Assembly (NCBI GenBank): GCA_036504255.1
Contig: DASXVL010000178.1
Location: 1-41,928 of the forward strand
DNA from: Armatimonadota bacterium
GTDB taxonomy: Bacteria; Armatimonadota; Hebobacteria; CAIYQO01
Direction of reading: 5' to 3'
DNA: 41,928 nucleotides
Positions 3,179 to 22,311 of this stretch are shown one piece after another; position 1 is the first letter of the stretch, and each line of letters starts with the position of its first letter. The notes beneath the pieces were generated by a model. That model searched no databases, was not told the origin of the DNA, and saw nothing but the letters and a program-made list of their open reading frames with translations. The translations under genes were made by a program, and so were the position numbers.

Positions 3179-4240
3179 TTACAGGGAACGCTTGTCCGCG
3201 ATGAGGGTCAATTCATAATGAAGGTCGAGCGATGGGAGCAACGTCCGATCGTTATGACAGGCTGCCAGGCAGGCATCAACCACATCGCCATCATACAGCA
3301 TGTTCCTTTGCGGAATGATCTCCTGCAAAATATCTTCCGAGCTGAGCGCTTGTCGATAGGGCCGGTGCGAGGAGATCGCGTCCACCACGTCCGCTACCGC
3401 GATGATGCGCGCTTCCAAGAGGATATCGTTACCCGCCAGACCGTTCGGATATCCGGTACCGTTCAGGCGTTCATGGTGCTGCAGCACCGTCTGGGCCACC
3501 GGGCGGGGAAAGGGGATGGTACGCAACAGACTGTACCCGGCTTGCGGATGCGTCTTCACCAGCGCCATCTCGAGTTCGGTGAGTTTCCCCGGCTTCCATA
3601 AAATGTCGTCGGGCACCGATATTTTTCCGATATCGTGGAGCATGCCGATAGTACGAATGCCGGCAATCTGCTCCTGGGGTAATTCCAGGACACCGGCGAT
3701 GGCGCAGGCCAATTGGCTCACACGCCGGGAATGCCCGACGATCGAACTATCACGACGCTCGACCACGGCGGCGATGGCATTGACGGTTTGTTCCAGCACC
3801 TGCCCAACTTCGACGTTGCGTTCGGCCAGTTCGTCTTTCGTCGCCTGAAAATCACGCCGGACCTGCGTCTCATGTATCTCTCGAGCGATGGACGGCAGCA
3901 GGCGCCGCCAGTTGCCACGACAGATATAATCGCGTGCCCCGGCCTGCATGGCCGAGACCCCATGCTCCTCATCTTCGAGGTCGATGATCATGATACTCGG
4001 CAGATCAGGCGCCAGTTCCTTGAGCAACGCAATGGCCGCTAAACCGTTAAATAAGGCTGCCTCCGGCATGGCGACCAGCGCAACGTCCCACGCTTGTCCC
4101 GTCAGCGCCTCCAGCGTCGCCGCCGGGCAATCCACTTGTTTCCAGTCAGGACAATAGCCCCCGTGCAGTAGCACATCTACAAGACCTTTCGCGTCATCGT
4201 CGGAAGAATTTATCAGCAAGACGCGCAACGGTGTGCTCAT
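3179..4240 (-). CDS. HD-GYP domain protein (putative c-di-GMP phosphodiesterase) with an atypical N-terminal receiver-like domain
   Basis: HD motif MLHDIGKISVPD and HHERLNGTGYPNGL. The N-terminal about 120 aa is CheY-like in layout but lacks the canonical acceptor context. RBS AAGGA lies upstream of the ATG. Confidence 0.85.
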   Translation of the reverse strand: MSTPLRVLLINSSDDDAKGLVDVLLHGGYCPDWKQVDCPAATLEALTGQAWDVALVAMPEAALFNGLAAIALLKELAPDLPSIMIIDLEDEEHGVSAMQAGARDYICRGNWRRLLPSIAREIHETQVRRDFQATKDELAERNVEVGQVLEQTVNAIAAVVERRDSSIVGHSRRVSQLACAIAGVLELPQEQIAGIRTIGMLHDIGKISVPDDILWKPGKLTELEMALVKTHPQAGYSLLRTIPFPRPVAQTVLQHHERLNGTGYPNGLAGNDILLEARIIAVADVVDAISSHRPYRQALSSEDILQEIIPQRNMLYDGDVVDACLAACHNDRTLLPSLDLHYELTLIADKRSL

Positions 4241-4371: not shown

Positions 4372-5385
4372 TCATTGGGGGCAGAGCAGCGCACGCAATT
4401 GCGCGGTCTCGTGCGAGTCGGCTGTGCTCGTCAACAAATCGTTGGGCATACGACCATGCCCATCACAGATATCACCCCGCGCGCCGTTGGTGAGCAGTAC
4501 AGCAACCATCGACACGTGCTGCTGCAGCACGGCATTATGCAGCGCAGTCGCCCCTTCATCATCCTGGGCATCGATTTCGGCGCCATGTAGCAACAGTGTG
4601 CGCACCATTTCCTCGTCACCGAGGCGCGCCGCCGCGTGCAAGGGCGTGCCCCCCAGGCGGTCGCGCGTCTGCACATCCGCTCCCGAGGCTAGCAGGAAAT
4701 TCACCAAGCGTGCCGGACCGCGATTGACCGCCGAATGCAATGGCGTCTCACCGCGATGGTCGGCCAGCGTGAGGTCAGCCCCGTAGGAGAGCAACAGCAA
4801 GGCGACGGCAGTGTAGCCGTCTTCTACAGCGTAGTGTAAAGGGGTTGCGCCGCGATAGTCCCGTGCATTCACCGAGGCGCAATGCGCGAGCAACAAATCC
4901 GTAATCACGCCACCCCACCCGGCTTTCGCAGCACAGTGTAAGGGGGTGTGGCCGACGATATCGCGCGCATCGACGTCAGCCTGCCGCCGCAAGAGCAGAC
5001 GTGCGGTAGCGCTGTCACCGGTCCAGACGGCGTAATGGAGCGGCCATTGCTCTGCGTATTCAATGGTGTTGAGTGTCGCGTGTCGTCCAACGAGCGACGT
5101 CAAGGTTTGCAGCCGATGTTCAGACCCAGGTCGAAAAGTCACAGTATCCTCATGAGAATATTGATTGGGATGCGCTAACGTCATGACCATGCCCATGCTC
5201 CTTAACACGCGTTTATACATCGACGCGGTCGCGCGAATATGGTGGCCGCGAGCAGCCCGCGGATAACGGCGGTTGCTAGAGGGTCGGGGCGGAATCGGGT
5301 TCTGGCGTCTCACGACGGGGAAGCCGTCATCCAGCGGCTTCAGAACTACAGACTCCATCGTAACGCCGTGAGATGAAGCGCACAC
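4372..5385 (-). CDS. ankyrin-repeat protein
   Basis: About 6-7 tandem ANK repeats, e.g. G.TPLH.A...G......LLL..GA(D/S)V(N/D)A.D. Examples: GHTPLHCAAKAGWGGVITDLLLAHCASVNARD and GGTPLHAAARLGDEEMVRTLLLHGAEIDAQD. The N-terminal about 90 aa is Arg/Pro-rich and the true start is uncertain (GTG at 5385, ATG at 5358, or further in). Confidence 0.8.
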   Translation of the reverse strand: MCASSHGVTMESVVLKPLDDGFPVVRRQNPIPPRPSSNRRYPRAARGHHIRATASMYKRVLRSMGMVMTLAHPNQYSHEDTVTFRPGSEHRLQTLTSLVGRHATLNTIEYAEQWPLHYAVWTGDSATARLLLRRQADVDARDIVGHTPLHCAAKAGWGGVITDLLLAHCASVNARDYRGATPLHYAVEDGYTAVALLLLSYGADLTLADHRGETPLHSAVNRGPARLVNFLLASGADVQTRDRLGGTPLHAAARLGDEEMVRTLLLHGAEIDAQDDEGATALHNAVLQQHVSMVAVLLTNGARGDICDGHGRMPNDLLTSTADSHETAQLRALLCPQ

Positions 5386-5603: not shown

Positions 5604-6815
5604 ATGATTCATGCTCATTCCGATGAAGACTCCTTCGAAAAAGCCGGCTGCGGACCTCACAAGACCGATGAGTTCCCGGCTGCGCCCGCTGACCGTACCG
5701 TCGATCACGCCCCGTGTGCCGGCACTGCGCTCACCGGCGACCCGGGTCGGGGTGCCATTTCCGACCGGGAACTGGAAGCCCTCATCCATCAATGGCGTAC
5801 GACCATAGATGCGGTGAATGATGCCATTATGCTCGTCAATCTGGATGGGGAAATCTTACGGTGCAACGCCGCGATGGCGCAGTTTGCGCAACGTCCCTTC
5901 CAGGAGATGATCGGACAACGCTGCTATGAGCTGGTACATGGTTTGTCCGCGAACATGCACCATTGCCCGCTGCAGCGTCTGCTGGCTGGCGAGGCAACCG
6001 AGCCGATGGTCATACAACGCAACGGTCGCGACTACGAAGTCCGCATCGACCCGTTACGCGACGCGGACAACCGGATTATCGGTGGCGTGCATATCTTTAC
6101 CGATATCACGAAGCGCGAACGCACGCGCAAACAAATTCTGCGCTACCAGGGACAACTGCGTTCGCTTGCTGCGCAACTTTCGTTGACGGAGCAACGTGAG
6201 CGCGAGCGCCTGGCGACGGAACTGCACGAAACGCTGGGACAAACGCTCGCCTTCACCAAATTAAAGCTCGACTGTGCGGGGGCTATGCCGTGCACGCCGG
6301 AAGTCCTGGAGACGCTAAACGAAGTGCGCGAGTTGATCAGTCAGGCCATACGCTATACCCGTTCCCTGACCTTCGAACTCAGTCCCCCGTTCCTGGCCGA
6401 ACTGGGCTTATTCGCCGCCGCCGAGTGGCTGGCAGAATCCTTCTCGTCGCAACATGGCCTCGCCATCCAGGTCACCGGCGTGCAGGGCGCGTTACCGATT
6501 ACCGATGATGTCCGCGGGTTGCTCTTCCGTGCCGTACGCGAATTGCTCATCAACGTCATCAAACATGCCAGGGCGCACTCCGCCACGGTCAACATCGCCT
6601 GTGATTCCATCGCGGTCACCGTCACGGTGTCCGATGATGGGACGGGTTTTGACCTATGCGAGGCAGAACGCTCCTTTGCCGGAAAAGGAAAGTATGGGCT
6701 GTTCAATTTACGCGAGCGCTTGACCTCACTGGGCGGCGACACCCGTATCATGACGCAACCTGATCATGGCACCCGTATTGTGTTAGTGGCGCCGATCGCG
6801 CAAACATTGCCGTAA
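5604..6815 (+). CDS. PAS-domain sensor histidine kinase, HisKA_3 (NarX/DegS-like) type
   Basis: PAS-like region WRTTIDAVNDAIMLVNLDGEILRCN...IFTDITKRE. H-box LATELHETLGQTL. HATPase_c elements ELLINVIKHA, VSDDGTGF and GKYGLFNLRERL. Confidence 0.85.
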   Translation: MIHAHSDEDSFEKAGCGPHKTDEFPAAPADRTVDHAPCAGTALTGDPGRGAISDRELEALIHQWRTTIDAVNDAIMLVNLDGEILRCNAAMAQFAQRPFQEMIGQRCYELVHGLSANMHHCPLQRLLAGEATEPMVIQRNGRDYEVRIDPLRDADNRIIGGVHIFTDITKRERTRKQILRYQGQLRSLAAQLSLTEQRERERLATELHETLGQTLAFTKLKLDCAGAMPCTPEVLETLNEVRELISQAIRYTRSLTFELSPPFLAELGLFAAAEWLAESFSSQHGLAIQVTGVQGALPITDDVRGLLFRAVRELLINVIKHARAHSATVNIACDSIAVTVTVSDDGTGFDLCEAERSFAGKGKYGLFNLRERLTSLGGDTRIMTQPDHGTRIVLVAPIAQTLP

Positions 6816-6832: not shown

Positions 6833-7489
6833 ATGCTCATACGCGTTCTCCTGGTTGATGATCACCGCTTGATGCGTGAAGGGTTACGTTCCCTACTGGA
6901 GACCCAAGACGATGTGAAGGTAATCGGGCAAGCGGATAATGGCCGCACGGCCGTACAACTCGCACGGGAGCTACACCCGACTGTCGTCATTATGGACGTG
7001 ACCATGCCCGAGCTCAACGGCATCGAAGCCACGCGCCAGATTCTCCAGGAGTCACCGGACACAAAAGTCATCGCCCTCACCATGCATTCCGACCCCCGCT
7101 ACGTCGCGGAAATGTTAAAAGCAGGCGCCCTCGGGTATGTCTTGAAAGATTCCGTCTTTGAGGAGCTCCGTTTAGCCTTGCAGCAGGTCATCACCAATCA
7201 ACCGTATTTTAGCGCACGCATCGCCAGTATCGTCCTTGAAGGCTATCTCTGCAATCAATCATCGCAGACGCATCCCCCGGTTTACCGGCTCCTCACTGCC
7301 CGTGAGCGTGAAGTGTTGCAACTCCTCGCCGAGGGCAAGGCCACCAAGGAAATCGCCCTGACGCTCACGGTGAGTACGAAAACCGTGGAGAAACATCGAC
7401 AGCAAATCATGGAAAAGTTGGAGCTGCACAGTGTGGCGGAATTGACGCGTTATGCCATTCGCGAGGGACTGGTGCCGCTTGACAATTGA
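6833..7489 (+). CDS. NarL/FixJ-family response regulator (REC + LuxR-type HTH)
   Basis: Receiver elements VLLVDDH, VVIMDVTMPELNG, VIALTMH and GYVLKD. C-terminal LuxR HTH LTAREREVLQLLAEGKATKEIALTLTVSTKTVEKHRQQIMEKL. It starts 17 nt after the kinase gene. Confidence 0.9.
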   Translation: MLIRVLLVDDHRLMREGLRSLLETQDDVKVIGQADNGRTAVQLARELHPTVVIMDVTMPELNGIEATRQILQESPDTKVIALTMHSDPRYVAEMLKAGALGYVLKDSVFEELRLALQQVITNQPYFSARIASIVLEGYLCNQSSQTHPPVYRLLTAREREVLQLLAEGKATKEIALTLTVSTKTVEKHRQQIMEKLELHSVAELTRYAIREGLVPLDN

Positions 7490-7626: not shown

Positions 7627-9795
7627 ATGTTGACCCCTAGTGAGCAGCTGCTCCAACGGCGAGAGGACGCGCAGACGCGTTTACGCGCAGAGCGTGAAGG
7701 CATTCGCCTGCAGATCTCCGTCGGTATGGCGACCTGTGGCATCTCCGCGGGTGGCGACGCTGTGTGGCAAGCCCTGGAAGAAGCGATCGCCGAATCAGGC
7801 GCCACCGATGTCGCCATCAAACGTGTCGGCTGTATCGGACAATGCCATGACGAGCCGCTGGTGGAAGTCGCGACGCCGGGGGGAGTTCCCTTTTTATATG
7901 GCAACGTGACGCCGAAAATCGCGCGGGATATTTTGCAGCATCACCTCCATGGCCAGCCCCCCCTCGATGCGTACCTGATCGACAGCGCTACGCATCCCCA
8001 CCTGCAACTGTGCGCCAACCTGACCAGCACGGCAACGGCTCGTCAAACGCTGCTGGATAGCCTGACCACGGCGCTGGCCGAAGTGGGGCTGACTGGCACT
8101 GTGACGCTTTCCACGCTGGGAACCACTGAAGCGCCACTATCCGATCCGCTCCTCTACGTGCATCCGGGCGATACCGTCTATCGGCTGTCGTCCCCCGCTG
8201 ATGCGCGGCGTATCGTCGTGGAGCACCTCGCGCAGGGCATGCCGGTCGCGGCGCTCATGGTCGATCCAGCACAGCGACCAGCCTTCGTGTACACGCAGGA
8301 CGTACCCACCGTCGTCCAGCGCCAGATGCGTATCGCCAGCCGCCACTGCGGCATTATTGACCCCGAATCGGTGACGGAAGCGCTGGCGGTCGGCGAATAC
8401 CAAGCGCTGGCCACTGCGCTCACCACCTCGACACCTGAGCAAGTCATGCAAACGGTGATCGACAGCGGGCTGCGCGGACGCGGGGGTGGTGGGTACCCGA
8501 CCGGAATCAAATGGCGGGATACGCGCACTTCAGCGGGTCAGCAGAAATACATCATCTGTAACGCCGACGAAGGCGACCCGGGCGCGTTTATGGACCGCAA
8601 CCTGCTCGAAGGTGATCCCCACGCGATCATCGAGGGGATGCAACTGGCAGGTTACGCCATCGGCGCCTCACAGGGCTTTGTCTACGTGCGTGCGGAATAC
8701 CCACTCGCCGTCACACGCCTGACACGCGCCATTGAGCAGGCGCGCGCACTCAACCTACTGGGCTCACAGATTTTGGGCAGTGACTTCAACTTCGATATCA
8801 GTTTGCGCCTCGGCGCCGGCGCGTTTGTCTGCGGCGAGGAAACGGCGCTCATTCACTCTATCGAAGGCGAACGCGGCATGCCGCGACCCCGTCCCCCCTA
8901 CCCCTCGCAACGTGGACTCTGGGATTGTCCCACCTGCATCAATAACGTTGAAACGCTGGCGGGTGTCGCCCCCGTCGTCCTCGGCGGCGCGCCGTGGTAT
9001 GCGGGGATCGGGACCAAGTCGAGTAAAGGCACCAAAGTCTTCGCCCTTGCCGGCAAAGTCGCGCGCACCGGGCTCGTCGAAGTGCCGATGGGTATCACCC
9101 TGCGCGACACGATCTTCACCGTCGGTGGCGGCATACGCGGTGGTAAACGTTTTAAAGCCGTGCAGATCGGCGGTCCGTCGGGTGGCTGTCTGCCGGAAGC
9201 GCTGCTCGACACGGAAGTCGATTACGAGTCGTTAGTTGGCGCAGGCGTCATCATGGGCTCCGGCGGCATGATCGTGCTGGACGAAGAAGATTGCATGGTG
9301 GATGTGGCGCGCTTCTTCCTGCAATTCACGCAGGATGAATCCTGTGGAAAATGCACGCCGTGTCGCGAAGGCACCAAGCGCATGCTGGAGATTCTGACGC
9401 GTATCACCAGCGGGCAGGGTACGCTGGATGATCTGGATCTCCTCACCCGCCTGGGGCACACCATTCAGCGCGCCAGTCTGTGCGGTCTCGGGCAGACCGC
9501 GCCAAATCCGGTGCTCTCCACGCTGCGCCATTTCCGGCAAGAGTATTTGGAGCACATCGAGAACCATTTCTGCGCCGCCGGCGTCTGCCGCGCCCTGGTG
9601 GGTTACCATGTCATCCCCGAGAAATGCATCGGCTGCGGCGCCTGCCGCCGCGCCTGCCCCGTCGCCTGTATCGCCGGGGAACCACGCCAAACCCATGCCA
9701 TCGACCAATCGCGCTGCATCAAATGCGGGGCCTGTTTCCGTGCCTGTCGTTTTAACGCGGTACATCGCGGCTCGACCGGGGGAGATAATCAATGA
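7627..9795 (+). CDS. hydB: NuoF-like flavoprotein subunit of an NAD(P)H-linked/bifurcating-type [FeFe]-hydrogenase (HydB-like)
   Basis: N-terminal thioredoxin-like Fe-S domain (MATCGISAGG...VGCIGQCHDEP). FMN/NADH motifs GLRGRGGGGYPTGIKW and ICNADEGDPGAFMDR. N3 cluster ESCGKCTPCREG. C-terminal 2x[4Fe-4S] motifs CIGCGACRRACP and CIKCGACFRAC. Confidence 0.85.
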   Translation: MLTPSEQLLQRREDAQTRLRAEREGIRLQISVGMATCGISAGGDAVWQALEEAIAESGATDVAIKRVGCIGQCHDEPLVEVATPGGVPFLYGNVTPKIARDILQHHLHGQPPLDAYLIDSATHPHLQLCANLTSTATARQTLLDSLTTALAEVGLTGTVTLSTLGTTEAPLSDPLLYVHPGDTVYRLSSPADARRIVVEHLAQGMPVAALMVDPAQRPAFVYTQDVPTVVQRQMRIASRHCGIIDPESVTEALAVGEYQALATALTTSTPEQVMQTVIDSGLRGRGGGGYPTGIKWRDTRTSAGQQKYIICNADEGDPGAFMDRNLLEGDPHAIIEGMQLAGYAIGASQGFVYVRAEYPLAVTRLTRAIEQARALNLLGSQILGSDFNFDISLRLGAGAFVCGEETALIHSIEGERGMPRPRPPYPSQRGLWDCPTCINNVETLAGVAPVVLGGAPWYAGIGTKSSKGTKVFALAGKVARTGLVEVPMGITLRDTIFTVGGGIRGGKRFKAVQIGGPSGGCLPEALLDTEVDYESLVGAGVIMGSGGMIVLDEEDCMVDVARFFLQFTQDESCGKCTPCREGTKRMLEILTRITSGQGTLDDLDLLTRLGHTIQRASLCGLGQTAPNPVLSTLRHFRQEYLEHIENHFCAAGVCRALVGYHVIPEKCIGCGACRRACPVACIAGEPRQTHAIDQSRCIKCGACFRACRFNAVHRGSTGGDNQ

Positions 9796-12107
9796 GTACT
9801 ATGGTCACCCTAACGATTGACGAACGCCAGGTGCAGGCGCCCGCCGGGACCAGCATCATGACTGCCGCAGAGCAACTCGGCATCCGTATTCCGCGCCTGT
9901 GTTTTCACCCGCAGTTGAGCATCGATGGCGCGTGCCGCATCTGCGTCGTGGAAGTAGAGGGCATGCGCAAACTGGTGACGTCCTGCTCCTACCCGGTCGC
10001 GGAAGGCATGACGGTGCGCACGACGACGCCGGAGATTCGCCAGATTCGCCGCGATATCTGTGAACTCTTGTTGGATAACCATCCGGAAGACTGCCAGACC
10101 TGTGAGCGTGACGGCAATTGCGAATTGCAACGGCTGGCGTATAGCCTCGGGGTGCGCGAACGCCTCTTCTCCGGCGAGAAGAAGCATTTCGTCGACGACC
10201 ATAGCTCTCCCGCCGTCATCCGTAATCCGGACAAATGCATCCTCTGCCACCGCTGTGTGCGCGTCTGTGCGGAAATCCAAGGCGTCACCGCGCTCGGGGT
10301 GGCGCATCGCGGCTTCCGCAGCAATGTCGTCCCGGCGCACGAAAAAGGATTTGGCGAGAGCGTCTGTACCGGGTGCGGCCAATGCATCAACGTCTGCCCG
10401 ACCGCCGCCTTCCTGGAGCATAACCGCACCGAGGAAGTGTGGACAGCGCTCGCCGACCCGACCGTGCATACTGTCGTCCATTTCGCGCCCTCCGTGCGCG
10501 CGGCCATCGGCGAAGGCTGGGGGTTGCCCCCCGGGACCAACCTGGAAGGCCAAATCGTCACGGCCCTTCGCCTTCTCGGCTTTGACCGGGTGTTCGATAC
10601 GCAATTCGGCGCTGACGTCACCACGGTGGAGGAAGCCAGCGAATTATTACTCCGCCTGCAGGAGAAGCGCGCGGATAAGCCCTTGCCGATGCTCACCTCC
10701 TGCTCGGCGGCGTGGCAAAAATTTATTGAGCAGTTCTATCCCGAGCAACTGGCCCACCTCACCAGCACGAAGTCCCCGATGAGCATCGTCAGCAAGCTGG
10801 TGCGCACCTATTACGCGGAGAAGATGGGCTGGGACCCGGCGAGCATCTTTGTCGTCACCGCTATGTGCTGCACGGCGAAGAAGTGGGAAGCCGCACGCCC
10901 GCAATTGAGCACCAACGGGCGTCAGGATACCGACGTGGTGATTACCACGCGCGAACTGGTCTGGATGTGCAAAGCCACCGGGATCAATTTACCGGCGCTC
11001 GCCCCGGAAATGCCCGACGCGTTACTCGGTGAATCGACCGGCGCGGGGGCGATCTACGGCGCCACCGGCGGCGTGATGGAATCCGCCTTACGCACCGCCT
11101 ATGCGCTCAAGTTCGGTGTGCCCCCGCCTGGCATCGAATTCCAGAGCGTGCGCGGTATGGAATGGCTGCGGGAAGCCGCCATCGACTTTGGCGGCCAACC
11201 GCTGCGTATCGCCATCGCCAATGGCCTGGGCGCGGCGCACACGCTGATGACGCAGGTGGCGGATGGTACCAGCCCCTACGACTATATTGAAATTATGGGC
11301 TGTCCGGGCGGCTGTATCGGCGGAGGCGGGCAGCCCTATGCCGGGGCAAATAGCGTGCCGCTCGACCGTGAACTGCTGCGCAAGCGCGCCGAGGTGCTCT
11401 ACGGCATCGACCGCCACCGCGAAATACGCCTCGCCCACGAGAACCCGAGCGTCAAGCGTTTATATGCCGAATATGTCGGCGAGCCGTTGGGCGAGAAAGC
11501 ACACGCGCTTTTCCATACCCACTTCGCGCCGGCCGAACCGCGCGGTATTCTGCCGCCAGCATTGCACGCCACCCCCATACCGATGCCTCCGCGCGAGACG
11601 GGCTGTACTGGGGAGATCTGTCATGAGCGCTGGGACAAACTCATCGCGGCCGTCGAAGAACATCGCAATCCCGACCATCCGGAAGCGGCGCTCATCCCTG
11701 TGCTGCATGCCGCACAAACGCTCTTTGGTTACTTACCGCAGCATGTACTCGACTTTGTCGCCTACCGCGTCGGGGTGCCCGCCGCGACGGTCTACGGCGT
11801 CGCGACCTTCTATCATCATTTCGACTTGACCGCGCAGGGCAGCTACCGTATCGCCGTGTGCGTCGGCACCGCCTGTTATATCAACGGCGGCGCCAGAATA
11901 CTCGCCGCATTGGAACAAGAGTTAGGCATCGCCTCGGGGAGCACGACAGCCGATGGGCTCTTCTCGCTCTCCGAAGCGCATTGCATCGGTGCGTGCAGCC
12001 TGGCGCCGGCCGTACTCATTAACGGTGCGGTGCACGGTGAAATGACACCGGAACGCGCCGTGCATTTGGTCACGACGCTACGCATGGAGCATGCCGAACA
12101 CGGCTAA
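9792..12107 (+). CDS. hydA: [FeFe]-hydrogenase catalytic subunit (HydA-like) with a C-terminal fused NuoE/HydC-type [2Fe-2S] domain
   Basis: 2Fe-2S CFHPQLSIDGACRIC. HPEDCQTCERDGNCELQ. Two 4Fe-4S motifs (CILCHRCVRVC, CTGCGQCINVCP). H-domain elements FDTQFGADVTTVEE, TSCSAAW, MCCTAKKWE and EIMGCPGGCIGGGGQP. The C-terminus carries CVGTAC...CIGAC (NuoE pattern). ATGA start/stop overlap with hydB. Confidence 0.85.
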   Translation: MSTMVTLTIDERQVQAPAGTSIMTAAEQLGIRIPRLCFHPQLSIDGACRICVVEVEGMRKLVTSCSYPVAEGMTVRTTTPEIRQIRRDICELLLDNHPEDCQTCERDGNCELQRLAYSLGVRERLFSGEKKHFVDDHSSPAVIRNPDKCILCHRCVRVCAEIQGVTALGVAHRGFRSNVVPAHEKGFGESVCTGCGQCINVCPTAAFLEHNRTEEVWTALADPTVHTVVHFAPSVRAAIGEGWGLPPGTNLEGQIVTALRLLGFDRVFDTQFGADVTTVEEASELLLRLQEKRADKPLPMLTSCSAAWQKFIEQFYPEQLAHLTSTKSPMSIVSKLVRTYYAEKMGWDPASIFVVTAMCCTAKKWEAARPQLSTNGRQDTDVVITTRELVWMCKATGINLPALAPEMPDALLGESTGAGAIYGATGGVMESALRTAYALKFGVPPPGIEFQSVRGMEWLREAAIDFGGQPLRIAIANGLGAAHTLMTQVADGTSPYDYIEIMGCPGGCIGGGGQPYAGANSVPLDRELLRKRAEVLYGIDRHREIRLAHENPSVKRLYAEYVGEPLGEKAHALFHTHFAPAEPRGILPPALHATPIPMPPRETGCTGEICHERWDKLIAAVEEHRNPDHPEAALIPVLHAAQTLFGYLPQHVLDFVAYRVGVPAATVYGVATFYHHFDLTAQGSYRIAVCVGTACYINGGARILAALEQELGIASGSTTADGLFSLSEAHCIGACSLAPAVLINGAVHGEMTPERAVHLVTTLRMEHAEHG

Positions 12108-12325: not shown

Positions 12326-14098
12326 ATGGCTATCGAGGATTTTTCTGCCTATCACGCGTATGCGGATGATTTATTGGCAACGTGTGATGAAGAGCAAACC
12401 ATCACACCGGGCGAAATGCGGCTGGCGATTTCGGCAGTGGAAGCCTTTGTCAAGGCCGTCAAGGCATATCGGTACTACCCACCCGAGTATCCCATGCTGG
12501 AGGAATTTCAACAGGAATTACTGACCACGCTCCAGGCCTATGTGGAACAACACACGATTTTATCCTTGACCATCACGGAAACGGCCTTTGCCCTGAAAGG
12601 CCGCCAGCTCTACGCCACGGAAGATCTCAAGAGCAGTGTGCCGTTCCTGTTCTACCGCGATGGTGTGCGGGAAATCTCCCTCTTCGAAGGCATCGAGGAA
12701 GGAGAAGTCCGCGATCTCATACAAATCCTCGTGCAGTGCGACCATACCGATAAGGCTGAGGATGACCTGGTCACACTGCTCTGGGAGAAGGAATTCGTGC
12801 ATCTCGATTACCTGGCCGTCGACGACTTCCTCGGCCAGGGTCCGGTCTTCATTCCAGAGACCGCCGAGGAATTCCGCCAGCATCTCGATCCCCGTCCGGT
12901 GGCCCATCACGAAGACGATGCGCTGTTCGACCGGCTCGGCGCACTCACCCACGAGAGCCCCTCCGAGTCGATCACCGATAAATTTGCCACCGAAATCGAC
13001 CTCTTTACGCTGTCCCCCACGGAAATGCGTGCCCTGCAAGAGGAGATCGATCATGATTGCGGTCCCTTCGGCGCTGCGCGCTACATCCCGCTGCTCTGCA
13101 ACCTGTTGACCACCGAGCAAGACCCTGCGCTGTTTCAACGGGAAATCGATGCGCTGCACGAGATTTTCGAGATGCTCTTGCCCCTGGGTGAATATCGCCG
13201 CGCCGCCGATCTGCTCACGCGTGTCCGCACGACGCTCGCATTATTTCCGCCGACGACGTGGCAGCATGCGCCGCTCAAAGCGCTGCTCCAACACGCGGTG
13301 CAGGGGCGTTGGTTGCCAGAGATTACCGCACGACTCCAACATCGCGAGCAGGGGCAGCACCTTGCGGATATCAAGGAGTTTCTGCTCCGACTCCCGAAAA
13401 CAGCGGTCGAACCGCTCATCCGCCTACTCGGCGATGTGTCTGACTACAAAACACGCGCCATGCTCTGTGAAGTACTCAGCGTTGTTGGCGCACAGGCGAC
13501 ACCGGTAATCGCGCCGTTTCTGTCCGACCCTCGCCCCACCCTCGTACAAGATCTGCTGAAAGTGTTGCGCCAGCTTAACCCGGAATCAGCCCTCCCGCTC
13601 TTTGCACGCGCCTGGCAGCACCGCGACGCCCAGGTGCGCAAAGCGGTCCTGAAAGCGGTGAGCGGCGTCGCCGGCGAGTACGCGGAACGCATACTCAGCA
13701 AAGGGCTGAGCGATCCGGATGAAAGTCTCCGCTGTCAGACCGCCATCTTCCTCGGCGGGCGGCAGACGGAGACCGCCTTGGCCACGCTGCTGCGCGTCGT
13801 ACATGCGAAAGGCTTTGATGCCCGCTCTCCGGCAGAGGTGCAGGCGTTTCTGGAAGGCTTGGGCGCGTCCCGCTCGCATCTCGCGCTGGACATTCTTGAG
13901 AGCCTCCTTGCCAGCCGTCCGTGGTTTGCCCGGCGCAAGGCCGATGAGATACGTCATCACGCGGCGCGCGCGCTGGGCATCGCCGGCACCCCGGAAGCGC
14001 TGGAGATGCTGCAAAAATACAGCACGGCGAAAGATGAGGCGATTCGCCGCGCATGTGTCCTGGCGCTGAAACTGGCATCACGGGGAGAACGCAAATGA
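12326..14098 (+). CDS. HEAT-repeat protein with an N-terminal module resembling that of the downstream HD-GYP protein
   Basis: C-terminal HEAT/PBS-lyase-like repeats (PFLSDPRPTLVQDLLKVL, RDAQVRKAVLKAV, LSDPDESLRCQTAIFLGG, EIRHHAARALGIAG, KDEAIRRACVLAL). I start it at the first ATG (12326, MAIEDF) rather than the TTG at 12245. Confidence 0.7.
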   Translation: MAIEDFSAYHAYADDLLATCDEEQTITPGEMRLAISAVEAFVKAVKAYRYYPPEYPMLEEFQQELLTTLQAYVEQHTILSLTITETAFALKGRQLYATEDLKSSVPFLFYRDGVREISLFEGIEEGEVRDLIQILVQCDHTDKAEDDLVTLLWEKEFVHLDYLAVDDFLGQGPVFIPETAEEFRQHLDPRPVAHHEDDALFDRLGALTHESPSESITDKFATEIDLFTLSPTEMRALQEEIDHDCGPFGAARYIPLLCNLLTTEQDPALFQREIDALHEIFEMLLPLGEYRRAADLLTRVRTTLALFPPTTWQHAPLKALLQHAVQGRWLPEITARLQHREQGQHLADIKEFLLRLPKTAVEPLIRLLGDVSDYKTRAMLCEVLSVVGAQATPVIAPFLSDPRPTLVQDLLKVLRQLNPESALPLFARAWQHRDAQVRKAVLKAVSGVAGEYAERILSKGLSDPDESLRCQTAIFLGGRQTETALATLLRVVHAKGFDARSPAEVQAFLEGLGASRSHLALDILESLLASRPWFARRKADEIRHHAARALGIAGTPEALEMLQKYSTAKDEAIRRACVLALKLASRGERK

Positions 14099-15561
14099 AC
14101 GCCTATGATGACCCACAGGTCGATAGCAATGAGCTGTTGCGACGCCATCAGCAACTGCCACGGCATTTCGGCCAAGCGTTCGTCGTCGTCTTTTACCGGG
14201 CCTATAAAGGCGCGGCCTTTTATGACCGCCAAAACGCGACCTTGCGCAGCCTCATCCGCGAGCTGCATTGGACGATCCACTCCATGCTCACGGCGTCCGA
14301 TCAGTTGGAAATCAAAATCATCCGTGACGCCTGCTTTTGCAATACCGCCATCATCCGTGCCGTTGCCGAACATTTCTCCAGTTATACCGGCTTCGTGCAG
14401 GCCTTGCGCCAGCGCGAAATCGGTGAATTGCATTTCAGCCCGAGTGTGACGGAGGAAGACCTCACTGCATTCATCTTCTTGCTGCGCGAGTTATCCGCTG
14501 TTCAAGATGATCCGTGCGAGTACTTAGCAGCGCAGTTGTTGCAACGTGGGCTCGTCTCGATAGAAGTCGGAAAGCTTGACATCGGCGAAGAACGGATGGG
14601 GACAGCGAATCCCGCGGATGTGAAGCGGCAGGCGAAATCCGTCTACTTCTCCAGCCTGGGCGTGACCAAAGAGCTCATGGAGGGTACGAAAGACCAAACG
14701 CTCAGCCTGCGGAAAGCCAAACGGCTCATGTTCAGCGCGGTTGACCTCATCACGCGCGATGAATCAGCCTTATTGGGGCTCACCTCCATCAAAAGCTATG
14801 ATGACTATACCTTCACCCATTGCGTCAATGTGGCGTTGTATGCCATCGCCATGGGAAACCGGCTACGCCTCTCCAAACGCAATCTTAGTTACCTGGGCAT
14901 CGCCGGACTCTTCCATGATCTGGGTAAAACGCTCATTTCACACGAGATTCTGGATAAACCCGGTGCGCTGACGCCGGAAGAGTGGGATGTCATCCGCACC
15001 CACCCGGCCAGCGGCGCCCGCCTCATTCTGCAGATGAAAGGATGGGGGCCGCTGGCGTCGCGCATGTTGGCGGCGAGTTTTGAGCACCATATCAAATATG
15101 ACCTCACCGGCTACCCGGCCATCGCCTATGATGAAAAGCCAAGCCTCTTCAGCCGTATCATCACCATCGCGGATGTGTATGATGCGCTGGCGCGCCCACG
15201 CGTTTACCGCAAAACTGCCTTTGTCACCGAGAAAATCCTCGCCGTGTTGCGTAAGGATAGCGGCACGCATTTCGACCCCACGTTGGTCAAAGTCTTCATC
15301 AATATGGTCGGCATCTATCCGCTCGGCGCCCTGGTACAACTCAACACCGGCGTGTTAGCCGTCGTGACGAAAATATCGCCAGAGCCGGATATGCTGCTAC
15401 ACCCGCAGATCTGTCTATTGGAGCATGAGGGGGAGACATACCGGAAGGGGATAGCGGTGGATCTGTCCGAGCGCGACACCACCGGACACTTCCCCCATAG
15501 CATCGCCCGCACCTTAGACCCCAACGACTACGGCATCAACCTGGAAGAACTTGCGCTGTAG
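14095..15561 (+). CDS. stand-alone HD-GYP domain protein (putative c-di-GMP phosphodiesterase) with no receiver domain
   Basis: HCVNVALYAIAMG, GLFHDLGKTLISHEILDKPGALTPEEW and HHIKYDLTGYPAI. The ATG at 14095 overlaps the upstream stop (ATGA at 14095-14098). Confidence 0.85.
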   Translation: MNAYDDPQVDSNELLRRHQQLPRHFGQAFVVVFYRAYKGAAFYDRQNATLRSLIRELHWTIHSMLTASDQLEIKIIRDACFCNTAIIRAVAEHFSSYTGFVQALRQREIGELHFSPSVTEEDLTAFIFLLRELSAVQDDPCEYLAAQLLQRGLVSIEVGKLDIGEERMGTANPADVKRQAKSVYFSSLGVTKELMEGTKDQTLSLRKAKRLMFSAVDLITRDESALLGLTSIKSYDDYTFTHCVNVALYAIAMGNRLRLSKRNLSYLGIAGLFHDLGKTLISHEILDKPGALTPEEWDVIRTHPASGARLILQMKGWGPLASRMLAASFEHHIKYDLTGYPAIAYDEKPSLFSRIITIADVYDALARPRVYRKTAFVTEKILAVLRKDSGTHFDPTLVKVFINMVGIYPLGALVQLNTGVLAVVTKISPEPDMLLHPQICLLEHEGETYRKGIAVDLSERDTTGHFPHSIARTLDPNDYGINLEELAL

Positions 15562-16054: not shown

Positions 16055-17173
16055 TCACTCACTGATGAAAAGCTCGCTATCTGACTCTTCATCCAGTACG
16101 TCGCGCACTTGTTGACTCGTCAGTACCATCTGCCCGGCATCCTCGGCCTGGTGAATCTCGGAGATCAGCGTGGAGGCCAGCATTACCTCGACATATTCCG
16201 GCTTGAACTGCCGCCCGCTTTGCGCGCGTAGCTCGGCACGAATCATCTTTTCCGGTAAACGCGCCCGATAGCAGCGATCACTGCTCATGGCATGGACGGT
16301 ATCACAAATGGCCAGCACCTGTGCCTGCCAGGGAATGTCGTCCTCTTCCAGCCCGTCAGGATACCCGTGCCCGTCCCAGCGTTCATGATGGGATCGTATC
16401 ATGGGCGCGAGATCGGCGAGCGCTTCGACGTTCGTAATAATTTCGCCGCTAAGAATGGCATGATTCTGCATGATGGAGAGATTGCTCGGCGTTAAGGGCT
16501 CCTGCTTATTCAAGATTTCCTCGGGCACGCCGATTTTCCCCAGATCATGCACCAACGCCGCGCGTTTTAACCGCAAACGCTCCGCATTCGGCACGCCGAG
16601 TCGTTGGCAGAACTGATCGACCAGCCAGAGTACGGCCATACTATGCCGCCCGCTATACGCATCGCGCAATTCCAGACTCATCAGCAACGCGTAAATGGTG
16701 CCGTGTACGTGCGTCGTGATCTGATGTTTGGCCATTTCGACTTCTTTACGCAGTGACTGATAATCCTGTTGAATCGCCTCCATCATCGCCGTGCGCCGCA
16801 ATTCATCCATTCGCCGTTCAATGCCCCGCTGCACGATGCCTTCCAACTCCACCGGGTTAAAGGGTTTCGTCAGATAGTCGAACGCGCCCAGCCGCAGCGC
16901 TTTGCGCGCGGTATCCACCGTGGCGTATGCGGTGATCAGAATCACTTCGACCTGCGGATCCTTGGCTTTGATATTCTGGAGGACTTCAATGCCGCCCATA
17001 TCCGGCATGCGCAGATCGAGCAATACGACATCCGGGCGTACCTCGGACAACATATTGATGGCTTGAGATCCAGAGTTCGCAAGTGCGAGCTCATAGCGAT
17101 CCTTCAACAGCATACGGATCGATTCGCGGACCCCGATCTCGTCATCGACTATGAGAACCTTCTTTAGCGCCAT
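16055..17173 (-). CDS. response regulator with HD-GYP output domain (RpfG-like c-di-GMP phosphodiesterase)
   Basis: Canonical receiver (VLIVDDE, VVLLDLRMPDMGG, ILITAY, DYLTKPF). HD-GYP motifs VHDLGKIGVPEEIL and HHERWDGHGYPDGL. Confidence 0.9.
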   Translation of the reverse strand: MALKKVLIVDDEIGVRESIRMLLKDRYELALANSGSQAINMLSEVRPDVVLLDLRMPDMGGIEVLQNIKAKDPQVEVILITAYATVDTARKALRLGAFDYLTKPFNPVELEGIVQRGIERRMDELRRTAMMEAIQQDYQSLRKEVEMAKHQITTHVHGTIYALLMSLELRDAYSGRHSMAVLWLVDQFCQRLGVPNAERLRLKRAALVHDLGKIGVPEEILNKQEPLTPSNLSIMQNHAILSGEIITNVEALADLAPMIRSHHERWDGHGYPDGLEEDDIPWQAQVLAICDTVHAMSSDRCYRARLPEKMIRAELRAQSGRQFKPEYVEVMLASTLISEIHQAEDAGQMVLTSQQVRDVLDEESDSELFISE

Positions 17174-19151
17174 ACCACCCCTCCCTGCGCTCTTCGATTG
17201 CTTGGCGGATCGGTAACCGGCAGAGTACGCTTAAAATCGACTCGGCCATGGAGACTGATAACGTGCCGGCATGCTGATGCAGAATATACTGCGCGGTCGC
17301 AAGACCAAGATCGATATGTTGTTCCGCATTACCCATAAACTGCTGCCAGGGGTTGAGCAGCCATTCAGGCGTTAACGAAACGCTCGTCGCGACCTCGATA
17401 CGAATGAGTACGGCGTCGTCCTCCGTCGTCACCTGTAACGTGGCAGGCATCTTTTTCGAGGACAAGTGCGTTAAGGTACGCAAGATGCAGGTGAGCGCCG
17501 TTTCCAAGCGCTGTCCATCCGCCAGCAGGGTCGGCAAACTGATCGGCAAGGAAACGACGACCTCGGAACGCATCTGCTCCGTGTTGGTGACATTCTCGAT
17601 GAGCGGGGCCAGTTCCAACTCCCCGAACTGGAACTCCACGTCGTTCGTCAAGACCAAGAGCTGTTCCAGAATAAGACTGACGCGTCCGATCTCATGCTGA
17701 AGCACGGATTCGCAGAAATGCTGGAAGTCAGGGTCGCCGGCCTGCTTGGGGGCCAGCGTACTGAAGGTCGACAGCGCCACCAACGGGTTGCGTAATTCGT
17801 GCGCCAGATAATGGAGCACGTTGTTGATGACCTCCAGGTTGACACGGCGTTCCCGCTCAGCATCCGCGCGCTTCTCGGCCGACAGATCTTCGAGGAGTAA
17901 CAAGGCGCTCGGCGGCGTCGTCGCCAACACAAACCCCGTCACCGCCACCGGCATCCCGGTGGTGGAGATCGTCAGTTCCTGCGGGGGCAAATCTTCCCGG
18001 TGCGCCAGCGCATGGAACGCTAAGTCCCCGAGCGGAGACGGCAGCACCCGGAGATCCATGCCCTGCAGAGCGGAGCGGCTTTTCCCCACCATCGCGGCGG
18101 CGGAGGCGTTCACGAAGGCGATGCATTGATCTTGCCCCAACACCAGCGTGCCGGTCGGCATGACACTCAGCATATGCGCGGTCAGTTCCTGCTGCGCTTG
18201 TACGGTACGGTGCATCTGGCAGTGATGCAGCGCCGTGGCGATTTGTCCGCCCAGCGTAAACAGCGCCTCAAGCTCGGACGCACTGTAATGCTGCCCAATG
18301 AGGCGCGCGCCGATGCCAAGAATCCCGACGAGTTGCCCATCGCGCACAATCGGGACGGCAGCCACGGCTTGCATCAGATCCAACCCCGTCAGGATATCAC
18401 TCGCAATCGCGCTGCCATGTCCATCCTTGAGTAAAATGCGCCCCGTGCTGGCTAACCAGCGACACAGCGGCGCGGTCTGCGGAAAGGCGCAATACGGCAC
18501 CAGCGTGGAGGGGAGCCCGCGTTGCGCGCGACAGGAGAACAAACCGGTTCCCTGGTCACGTAGCAGGATGACCGCCCGACTGGTCTGGCAGGCCTGCTGC
18601 ACCCATCCGGCAAACAACTCGACCAGCGTCGCCTCTTCCAAACCGGAAAACATCTCAGCGAATTGCCGAAACTGTGGATTTTCCAACAAACTCGGCGTCT
18701 CGTTGACAATCGACGTCGCCGTGTTAAGCATCGGGGCAGGCATGATGGCCTTCGCGGGAGAAAATCCGGCGTCAGTGGTAGCGCCCTGGGACGATTGCCC
18801 GTGGTGTTCAACGCGCTTCAGACGGTGGAGAAACGGCTCTAGCCCTTCATCGAGGCGCAGCAAATCATCGGCCACACTCCACCATTCCTCCTCGGTGGGC
18901 CCAGGCGAAAAAGCCAGTAACGGCATCTGCGGGTGTAATTGTCGCAAATCTGTCGCCAATTGCATCCAGATGGCGCGCGGCCAGGTGAGGTCAACCAGGA
19001 TCACACTCACGGGTAACGTTTGGATCTGGTTAATCACTTCCGGCACCGAATGTGCCGTCACCAGGGCAATCGGAGGCTTTGCCAGCGCCAAGCGATCTTG
19101 TACGGCTGTGATATGTCGTTGTTCATGTGCAAGATAGCAGACTAGATACAT
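17142..19151 (-). CDS. REC-like / GAF / PAS / HisKA protein with a degenerate ATP-binding domain (pseudo-kinase, possible histidine phosphotransferase)
   Basis: H-box LAHELRNPL is retained (His codon at 17799-17801). The CA region is paralogous to the upstream kinase but has lost the N, G1 and G2 boxes (LTCILRTLTHL, EVATSVS, HIDLGLAT). The N-terminal receiver-like fold lacks the DD pair. Confidence 0.75.
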   Translation of the reverse strand: MYLVCYLAHEQRHITAVQDRLALAKPPIALVTAHSVPEVINQIQTLPVSVILVDLTWPRAIWMQLATDLRQLHPQMPLLAFSPGPTEEEWWSVADDLLRLDEGLEPFLHRLKRVEHHGQSSQGATTDAGFSPAKAIMPAPMLNTATSIVNETPSLLENPQFRQFAEMFSGLEEATLVELFAGWVQQACQTSRAVILLRDQGTGLFSCRAQRGLPSTLVPYCAFPQTAPLCRWLASTGRILLKDGHGSAIASDILTGLDLMQAVAAVPIVRDGQLVGILGIGARLIGQHYSASELEALFTLGGQIATALHHCQMHRTVQAQQELTAHMLSVMPTGTLVLGQDQCIAFVNASAAAMVGKSRSALQGMDLRVLPSPLGDLAFHALAHREDLPPQELTISTTGMPVAVTGFVLATTPPSALLLLEDLSAEKRADAERERRVNLEVINNVLHYLAHELRNPLVALSTFSTLAPKQAGDPDFQHFCESVLQHEIGRVSLILEQLLVLTNDVEFQFGELELAPLIENVTNTEQMRSEVVVSLPISLPTLLADGQRLETALTCILRTLTHLSSKKMPATLQVTTEDDAVLIRIEVATSVSLTPEWLLNPWQQFMGNAEQHIDLGLATAQYILHQHAGTLSVSMAESILSVLCRLPIRQAIEERREGWYGAKEGSHSR

Positions 19152-21565: not shown

Positions 21566-21570
21566 AAGGC

Positions 21571-22311
21571 TTAGACTTCCAACAGCACAGGCGCACTGCG
21601 CGTCGCTGACACAAGCCAGCACTGCTCCGCGTAGACGGACTGGCAAACGAGCGGTCGTAATCCCAACTCTGGGAGGAGCGCCGTAATCTCGTCCACCGCG
21701 AAAAAGTTATACTCCCCCGCTGCCCAACGGCGCTGAATATCCGCGTTTGCCCGCCTCACCGCCAATAAGGCCGGCAGCGCGGCGACGGTACGCGCCCAAC
21801 GCGTTAGGCGTGCGGCAAGCGGCAACTGCCGCAGCGCGGCAAAATGCGCCTGGGCAATCGCCGCAGGCGTGGAATGCGGATGACGGTCACACAAGAGCAA
21901 TCGCCCGCCCGGTTTCAACACGCGGGCAATTTCACGCAATGCCGCGCGCTGATCCGGCAGCGCATAGAGCACGTTGCACATCACGACGACGTCAAATTCC
22001 GCATCGCCGAACGCGAGGCCGGCGCACAGGTCGGCCTCAGCGTGTCGCACATGCGCACGGTCCGCACATTTGGCGCGCGCACGCGCCAGCATCGCCGCGG
22101 AAAAATCCACGCCGGTCACCTGCAACTGCGGCTGGAGACGGGTCGCCAATTCTTCGAAATTGCCGGTACCGCACCCGGCGACCAGCAACTGCTCATGCGG
22201 GGACAAGGCCGCCGCCGTGTACACCGTCTGCAACAGCGCCTCATAGGGTAACCACAACGTCAGCGCATCATAACCTTTGACCGCGTACCCATCCCAAAAA
22301 CTCGCTGACAT
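21571..22311 (-). CDS. class I SAM-dependent methyltransferase
   Basis: Motif I LLVAGCGTGNF, an acidic loop VTGVDFS, then DVVVMCNVLYAL and LKPGGRLLL. The start ATG shares one base with the upstream TGA (22311). Confidence 0.8.
   Translation of the reverse strand: MSASFWDGYAVKGYDALTLWLPYEALLQTVYTAAALSPHEQLLVAGCGTGNFEELATRLQPQLQVTGVDFSAAMLARARAKCADRAHVRHAEADLCAGLAFGDAEFDVVVMCNVLYALPDQRAALREIARVLKPGGRLLLCDRHPHSTPAAIAQAHFAALRQLPLAARLTRWARTVAALPALLAVRRANADIQRRWAAGEYNFFAVDEITALLPELGLRPLVCQSVYAEQCWLVSATRSAPVLLEV

Follow-up and report, generated by a model that had tools for sequence, protein, structure and literature searches.

The electron-bifurcating enzymes of the Bfu family are defined by a BfuB subunit with a NuoF-type flavin mononucleotide (FMN) domain, an SLBB domain, a NuoF 4Fe-4S domain and a C-terminal 2x[4Fe-4S] domain (PMC9304861), and all five BfuB clusters are described as conserved in these enzymes (Schut et al., 2022, PMC9304861). 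Bifurcating β subunits are further marked by A/E232, M234, F367 and GGPSG in Thermotoga maritima numbering (Losey et al., 2020, PMC7311640). In the HydABC [FeFe]-hydrogenase of Acetobacterium woodii, Ser301 stands in place of one of the Cys ligands of the H-cluster [4Fe-4S] cubane (Katsyv et al., 2023, PMC10021017); the Ser causes no apparent change in the vibrational signature shown by the enzyme, whose infrared signatures and activities resemble those of the all-Cys enzyme of Thermoanaerobacter kivui (PMC10021017). Here we analysed a 41,928-nucleotide stretch from an Armatimonadota bacterium (GenBank assembly GCA_036504255.1, contig DASXVL010000178.1, forward strand; hereafter the window), in which two overlapping genes, hydB and a hydA::hydC fusion, carry the elements of such a complex together with altered active-site motifs. 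From the sequence features, homology, conservation across a clade of relatives and gene context of this locus we infer that, on balance, it encodes a catalytically competent HydABC-type (group A3/Bfu) [FeFe]-hydrogenase in two genes, which would also bifurcate electrons. Catalytic activity as such is very probable, as judged from the sequence.

The hydA::hydC fusion is an uninterrupted frame of 771 codons, the start codon of which overlaps the stop codon of hydB (Table 1). A preliminary description of this DNA had proposed exactly this arrangement, i.e. hydB plus hydA::hydC joined by an ATGA overlap, and both the DNA and the list of open reading frames (ORFs) agree with it. Along HydA, the Pfam matches follow the order Fer2_4, His-ligated 4Fe-4S region, 2x Fer4, Fe_hyd_lg_C, Fe_hyd_SSU and 2Fe-2S_thioredx/NuoE, with scores of 265 bits (PF02906) and 74 bits (PF02256) for the H-domain models. 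The F-domain presents a [2Fe-2S] site (C37, C48, C51, C65), a His-ligated [4Fe-4S] site (H97, C101, C104, C110) and 2x[4Fe-4S] sites (C149/152/155/159 and C192/195/198/202). An alignment of 22 relatives (alignment A1) showed no variation at any accessory-cluster ligand, at the relay Cys304 or at the ligands Cys360, Cys504 and Cys508. The family model TIGR02512 scored 442 bits, over its cutoff of 406. In a Foldseek comparison, 8a6t_A ranked first, with a probability of 1.00 for both 8a6t_A and CpI, and the closest solved relatives of HydA are the bifurcating HydA1 subunits of T. kivui and A. woodii. The predicted local distance difference test (pLDDT) score of the H-domain in the AlphaFold2 (AF2) model is mostly 85-95.

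Motif L3 agrees with the consensus ExMxCxxGCxxG, reading EIMGCPGGCIGG at residues 500-511. The strict L1 consensus TSCCPxW is broken by Ser305, which occupies the ligand position next to the relay Cys304, and of the L2 consensus MPCxxKxxE the Met, the ligand Cys, Lys363 and Glu366 are kept while Pro is replaced by Cys. HMMER aligned L1 and L2 without gaps to CpI, T. kivui HydA1 (8A6T) and A. woodii HydA1 (7Q4V), the last of which reads TSCSPGW. These alignments place Cys304 at the proton relay (CpI Cys299), Ser305 at the [4Fe-4S]H ligand site (CpI Cys300, T. kivui Cys299, A. woodii Ser301), Cys359 at CpI Pro354 and Cys360 at the ligand CpI Cys355; in L3, Gly503 takes the position of CpI Ala498. 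A gapped alignment that would restore both motif-1 cysteines was ruled out, because the stretch from TS to W is ungapped against all three proteins. Likewise, a sequencing error or a pseudogene was ruled out, because the motifs and the fused length (746-784 residues) recur in 19 independent homologue clusters of 75-81% identity from the window's own clade, drawn from NCBI, JGI, ENA and Logan assemblies; in addition, the Ser305 codon TCG is two changes away from TGY. The motif readings of the preliminary description, its placement of Ser at the ligand position with an extra Cys beside the motif-2 ligand, and its argument from the Ser codon were all confirmed by these comparisons.

The remainder of the active site is well preserved. 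Within the proton pathway, the equivalents of CpI C299, E279, E282 and R286 are identical and S319 is conservatively replaced by Thr, and the equivalents of CpI M353, K358, E361 and M497 are kept as well. This bears on the idea, also raised in the preliminary description, that the site is sensory, slow or inactive, so that HydA would be a hydrogenase-like protein comparable to HydS of groups C/D or to dead homologues of the HylA type. Such a protein could explain why the strict L1 and L2 consensus of several surveys is not satisfied, and a two-component system does lie directly upstream of the operon; we nevertheless consider this interpretation very unlikely, because the relay Cys304, the proton pathway, motif 3, the CpI K358 equivalent and both Met residues are all retained, Pfam detects no PAS or other signalling domain in HydA, and the gene sits in a hydB-hydA-hydC redox module with NAD(H) (nicotinamide adenine dinucleotide), FMN and ferredoxin-type sites and a HydB of the bifurcating type. 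Furthermore, the A. woodii enzyme is active with TSCS, and the clade is strongly conserved across phyla. A sensory HydS of group C/D in particular was ruled out by the absence of PAS from HydA and the presence of the relay Cys. We also considered an O2 protection by a 'safety cap' as in CbA5H. The residues at CpI positions 296, 318 and 493 are said to enable the loop shift in that enzyme, and this candidate was set aside, as only one of these three residues (Leu at CpI 296) is in the CbA5H state.

Ser at the cubane ligand position proved to be the majority form among the HydABC-type loci sampled. In a sample of 80 such loci from GTDB species genomes, 70 of the 89 H-domains combined TSCS with MPC, 14 had TSCC/MPC, four had TSCS/MCC and one was unreadable, so that 74 of 89 carry TSCS. 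Across ∼150 diverse H-domain representatives at 50% identity, the commonest state was TSCCP/MPC (84 sequences), and ∼19 had TSCS with MPC; TSCS made up ∼12% of this broader set. Ser at this position is, therefore, a normal state of multimeric [FeFe]-hydrogenases and no mark of a sensory or dead site. Since the active A. woodii enzyme shares the Cys-to-Ser change, the strict L1 motif is too narrow as a definition, and TSCS loses the suspect status that the preliminary description had given it. That description had also asked whether TSCS and MCC together are common in a characterised active clade: TSCS is found in a characterised active enzyme, the combination with MCC is not. In the literature, an older metagenomic paper separated TSCSPGW variants from a hydrogenase that was called complete in functional residues (PMC3787301), and one survey screened homologues by their L1-L3 motifs (PMC6085437). 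Our literature search for the variant motifs returned neither TSCSAAW nor TSCSSAW, and found TSCSPGW only in a 2013 Melainabacteria paper. Several loci of the sample hold two hyd operons abreast, i.e. L017, L023, L037 and L065 from Ignavibacteriales/Melioribacteraceae and L011, L034 and L036 from Deltaproteobacteria/Syntrophus, and in these the motif states differ between the neighbouring operons. The four Ignavibacteriales/Melioribacteraceae loci have, in addition, a weak H-domain-like segment (24-26% identity) with GPC for MPC directly downstream of hydA.

With the TSCS part explained by a characterised enzyme, the new element of this locus is the natural MCC variant with its companion changes. 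Among the 120 closest clusters at 90% identity, 113 combine TSCS[A/S]AW with MCC, three have TSCSPGW/MPC and two have TSCCPTW/MCC (P0033 and P0037). We compared individual residues between 119 unique H-domains of the clade and 220 others. Cys359 (CpI Pro354) was present in all 119 and in none of the 220, of which 219 have Pro; Gly503 (CpI Ala498) and Met330 (CpI Gln325) were likewise found in 100% of the clade, as opposed to 11% and 14% of the other sequences respectively. Cys359 thus co-varies with A498G, Q325M and the loss of Pro301/Gly302, the latter pair being replaced by [A/S]-Ala; each of these changes adjoins a cluster ligand, and the clade further shares a short insertion after GGGGQP. 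In the window this insertion reads YAGANSVPL (HydA residues 516-524, 11337-11363) and follows directly on the GGGGQP in motif 3. Most other [FeFe]-hydrogenases lack it, and it overlaps a segment (residues 513-523) with a pLDDT below 50 in the AF2 model.

In a neighbour-joining tree of H-domains, which we regard as indicative only, the 50 sampled MCC sequences all fell into a single clade with 52 tips, in which the TSCCPTW/MCC pair and a TSCSPGW/MPC pair were nested; in the 50%-identity library, the whole MCC group falls into the cluster of the query itself. MCC thus appears to define one nearly monophyletic clade that extends over many phyla. By record taxonomy, its members include Planctomycetota (Sedimentisphaerales, Phycisphaerales and the isolate Anaerobaca lacustris) as well as Auribacterota, Margulisiibacteriota, Bacillota, Solirubrobacterales, Armatimonadota, Dependentiae, Spirochaetales and Vulcanimicrobiota. 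The cultured A. lacustris carries a TSCSSAW/MCC enzyme (P0081). The group to which the window itself belongs is probably Armatimonadota-like. In the AF2 model, L1, L2 and L3 are each built as a strand, a loop and a helix, the cubane ligand being the second residue past the strand; three of the four cubane ligands have one of the changed residues as a neighbour (after Ser305, before Cys360 and before Cys504). Collectively, the conservation pattern points to a coordinated remodelling around the cubane under strong purifying selection. A literature search for MCC-type motifs (MCCTAKK, MCCxxK) yielded no report of them and no characterised member of the clade.

These changes raise the question of which residue holds the fourth site of the cubane. 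We think it somewhat probable that Ser305 rather than Cys359 serves as the ligand. The cubane would then be held by Cys360, Cys504 and Cys508 together with the oxygen of Ser305, as in A. woodii HydA1, and Cys304 would stay the proton relay. Cys359 would belong to the remodelling seen throughout the clade, in which [AS]A follows Ser305, a Cys precedes Cys360 and a Gly precedes Cys504. The remodelling probably serves to tune cubane packing or potential, with Cys359 not being an obligatory ligand. Because TSCS/MPC is common and TSCC/MCC exists, Cys359 is not needed to rescue the Ser.

Alternatively, the locus may represent a natural ligand swap, in which Cys359 and Cys360 bind the cubane in tandem and Ser305 is a second-sphere residue only. 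We regard this as improbable, but the invariance of Cys359 in the MCC clade and its absence elsewhere would be in keeping with it. So would the joint loss of the prolines that make the L1 and L2 loops rigid (CpI P301 and P354), accompanied by A498G beside the third ligand, since these are the changes that a local rearrangement of the backbone around the cubane would require. A tandem of this sort has a precedent in cluster N2 of complex I, a [4Fe-4S] cluster ligated by two consecutive Cys. However, TSCS/MPC enzymes such as that of A. woodii function without a compensating Cys, and the TSCC/MCC sequences hold all four canonical Cys plus the extra one. Moreover, the secondary structure of the AF2 model makes residue 359 the first loop residue after the strand that ends with M358; as solved homologues have the equivalents of M358 and C360 turned towards the H-cluster, the side chain at 359 is expected to point away from it. 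If the swap were true, it and the co-varying changes would between them shift the potential of [4Fe-4S]H in a bifurcating hydrogenase.

The fusion to HydC is the second departure from the three-subunit pattern. The fused domain has four Cys in the ligand pattern Cx4C-x35-Cx3C, and the PDB chain closest to it is T. kivui HydC (8a6t_C, E=2.9e-39, matched over residues 27-156 of 170); the NuoE/HydC-type [2Fe-2S] domain that the preliminary description had recognized at the C-terminus is thus supported by a full-length Pfam match as well as by the closest structure. Besides the 19 clusters mentioned above, the fused build occurs in more distant proteins of 51-56% identity, including Margulisiibacteriota and Dependentiae records, and these show all three motif combinations. 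The HydC fusion is hence a recurrent architectural variant. Three close fused relatives (L081, L082 and L086) have only the hydB-hydA::hydC pair in common with the window and differ in their flanks; within the 3-10 kb fetched on each side, no hydC was called apart from the fused one. The usual gene order elsewhere is hydC-hydB-hydA. Twelve sampled hydA genes in GTDB loci are instead followed directly by hydC as a separate ORF, and in eight of these 12 cases the locus has no other hydC; a check of the ORFs in L001-L012 confirmed hydC as an unfused frame of its own just downstream of hydA. In the unfused clade members L002 and L006, the only detected hydC is the one downstream of hydA.

The most fitting reading of the fusion is that neighbouring hydA and hydC genes have merged and that the fused domain is the HydC of the complex, given its full NuoE homology, the lack of a nearby hydC and the existence of loci with hydC downstream. 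T. maritima offers a different model, in which HydA has a HydC-like C-terminal [2Fe-2S] domain in addition to a separate HydC (PMC9499530). By analogy, the domain in the window could be such a 'bridge' [2Fe-2S] domain (cluster A5), with HydC encoded elsewhere in the genome. This is quite unlikely, because the 91 residues of the T. maritima domain match only the last 82 of HydC (PMC9499530), whereas the window has the whole NuoE/HydC fold including its N-terminal helical part. The gene content argues in the same direction: no second hydC was found among the genes of the 42-kb window, none was called in the 3-10 kb fetched on either side of the operon in the fused relatives, and the unfused L002 and L006 have their sole detected hydC downstream of hydA.

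HydB is the partner that links this catalytic subunit to the bifurcating enzymes. Two N-terminal thioredoxin-like domains precede an FMN/NAD(H)/SLBB/4Fe-4S core, behind which a 2x[4Fe-4S] domain forms the C-terminus, with Pfam matches to Complex1_51K, SLBB, NADH_4Fe-4S and 2x Fer4 (PF01512, PF10531, PF10589 and 2x PF00037 at residues 660-713); every BfuB core domain of the Bfu family definition is, therefore, present. The protein carries GAFMDR, GAGAFVCGEE and GGPSGG, as read from translation and alignment, and is in the bifurcating state for all sequence criteria of Losey et al. (2020), including the C-terminal 2x[4Fe-4S] domain. Each of its top PDB matches is the B subunit of a bifurcating Bfu enzyme (9bov_B, 7t2r_B, 9n5u_B, 7q4v_B and 8a6t_B). 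The first thioredoxin-like domain (residues 29-127; 7711-8007) is an extra one with three conserved Cys (C37, C69 and C73); it resembles the N-terminal domain of 9bov_B and is also found in the relatives L004, L005, L081, L082 and L086. The second (residues 124-228; 7996-8310) corresponds in the alignment to the canonical N-terminal [2Fe-2S] domain that is present in HydB from A. woodii and Acetomicrobium mobile.

In the complex that we envisage, HydB would bind FMN and NAD(P)(H), and ferredoxin would dock at its C-terminal 2x[4Fe-4S] domain. The domain fused to the end of HydA would supply the [2Fe-2S] cluster that usually resides on a separate HydC, and the accessory clusters of the HydA body would connect these sites with a normal H-cluster. 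Most likely, the complex would couple NAD(P)H and reduced ferredoxin to H2 formation (confurcation), and would also run in reverse.

Several points weigh against this assignment. The best-scoring curated family for HydA, NCBIfam NF040763, reached 754.3 bits and thus fell narrowly below its cutoff of 765, with a model that spans only the 571-residue hydrogenase body without the fused HydC. Three of the four Cys ligands are lost from the second thioredoxin-like domain of HydB (CANLTS/LGTTEAP), and since all five BfuB clusters are described as conserved, bifurcation could be impaired or rewired. The Ser ligation in A. woodii comes from a cryo-electron microscopy model of moderate resolution, and in the window the adjacent thiolate of Cys359 could outcompete the Ser if the geometry allows. 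Furthermore, the TSCS/MCC clade lacks a characterised member, and genes for the maturases HydE, HydF and HydG are absent from the window, as the preliminary description had stated.

The changes in HydB deserve closer attention in this context. Its second thioredoxin-like domain is only 34-42% identical to that of L081, L082 and L086, compared with 76-78% in the NuoF core, and these relatives keep the CxxxxC...CxxxC pattern there. A frameshift in the divergent domain was ruled out, as its flanks aligned in frame without gaps. Taken together with the nearest NCBIfam model, NF040763, which bears the name 'NADH-dependent [FeFe] hydrogenase, group A6' and is used for many TSCS/MCC relatives in NCBI records, the degenerate domain could be a sign of lost bifurcation machinery and the enzyme a non-bifurcating hydrogenase that depends on NADH only. 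We hold this to be a minor possibility, because every β-subunit criterion of Losey et al. (2020) is in the bifurcating state, the best structural relatives of HydB are without exception bifurcating, and HydB has an extra N-terminal thioredoxin-like domain in which three Cys are conserved. In view of these bifurcating signatures, the NF040763 label should not be taken to mean non-bifurcating, and a bifurcating HydABC-type enzyme is the assignment we prefer.

Table 1. Features of the hyd locus in the 41,928-nucleotide window (residue numbers refer to HydA).
Feature	Position	Strand	Description
hydB	7627..9795	+	722 aa; NuoF-like flavoprotein subunit, Bfu/HydABC type
ATGA overlap	9792..9795	+	hydB TGA (9793-9795) over hydA ATG (9792-9794), read from the sequence
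hydA::hydC	9792..12107	+	[FeFe]-hydrogenase catalytic subunit joined to a complete HydC/NuoE domain
F-domain, aa 1-210	9792..10421	+	Pfam Fer2_4, NADH-G_4Fe-4S_3, Fer4_Nqo3
H-domain and small-subunit-like segment, aa 226-580	10467..11531	+	Fe_hyd_lg_C 226-512, Fe_hyd_SSU 527-580
Motif L1, TSCSAAW, T302-W308	10695..10715	+	DNA acc tcc tgc tcg gcg gcg tgg
Motif L2, MCCTAKKWE, M358-E366	10863..10889	+	DNA atg tgc tgc acg gcg aag aag tgg gaa
Motif L3, EIMGCPGGCIGGGGQP, from E500	11289..11336	+	Ligands Cys504 and Cys508
Pro-rich linker, aa 583-626	11538..11669	+	No Pfam domain; pLDDT <50 at aa 584-598 (AF2)
HydC/NuoE-type [2Fe-2S] domain, aa 627-763	11670..12080	+	PF01257, 154.9 bits, profile 9-144 of 145

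Directly upstream of hydB, on the same strand, come a PAS-containing HisKA_3 histidine kinase (5604-6815) and a LuxR/NarL-type response regulator (6833-7489). These two genes could act as regulators of the hydrogenase operon; in the relatives L081 and L082, the operon is not accompanied by this pair. Signalling genes are unusually dense in the window at 3179-4240 (-), 14053-15561 (+), 16055-17173 (-) and 17142-25938 (-). They comprise three HD/HD_5 (HD-GYP-like) proteins, of which one carries a receiver domain, along with three large GAF/PAS histidine kinases, one being a hybrid and one having a seven-transmembrane sensor. An ankyrin-repeat protein of 336 residues is encoded at 4372-5385 (-), and an ankyrin/FGE-sulfatase protein is found close to the hyd operon of L081. 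In two further close relatives, foreign genes have come to lie between hydB and hydA::hydC, namely a Y1 transposase with an ORF of unknown function in L084 (786-2799) and a GH32 glycoside hydrolase in L085 (1581-2918), which indicates that the tight ATGA coupling is not universal.

For genome surveys, the consequence of these findings is that strict TSCCPxW/MPCxxKxxE filters would drop the whole MCC clade along with the TSCS forms, i.e. the majority of the sampled HydABC-type hydrogenases, and would lead to H2 metabolism being underestimated in Planctomycetota, Margulisiibacteriota, Armatimonadota-like and other lineages. For the chemistry of the H-cluster, the clade amounts to a natural experiment on the first and second sphere of [4Fe-4S]H, with Cys to Ser, Pro to Cys and Ala to Gly changes at or beside the ligands, and these changes fall in an enzyme in which redox tuning plays a central part in bifurcating electrons. 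The hydA::hydC fusion, for its part, fixes the stoichiometry and the proximity of the HydC cluster, which is a mobile gate in current models, and a fused version could aid structural work.

Among the known systems, HydABC(D) of A. woodii (HydA1 in PDB 7Q4V/7Q4W/8A5E) resembles the enzyme of the window in its multimeric electron-bifurcating type, in TSCS, in the clusters of the F-domain and in the type of HydB, and its HydA1 matches the window HydA with E=3.9e-156. It differs in that it keeps Pro301/Gly302 (TSCSPGW), Pro354 (MPC) and Ala498 (MAC), and in that HydC is separate and encoded upstream while HydB has a single N-terminal [2Fe-2S] domain. T. kivui HydABC (PDB 8A6T) provides in HydA1 the best sequence match (E=1.6e-167) and the first Foldseek rank, and its HydB and HydC are top or near-top as well; unlike the window, however, it has the canonical TSCCPSW/MPC motifs and three separate subunits. 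In T. maritima HydABC (PDB 7P5H/7P8N), HydA likewise ends in a HydC-related thioredoxin-like [2Fe-2S] domain, but this ∼91-residue domain covers the C-terminal part of HydC only and is accompanied by a separate HydC, whereas the window has a full HydC domain and no such gene nearby. Fusions that involve HydC were previously described for Syntrophus aciditrophicus HydAB and for the fused hydrogenase of Nyctotherus ovalis (Losey et al., 2020). In the former, HydC is joined to the N-terminus of HydB, and the latter has the equivalents of all three subunits in one polypeptide. Each of these enzymes either is non-bifurcating or has been proposed as such, and the bifurcating signatures that HydB of the window has are missing from their β subunits.

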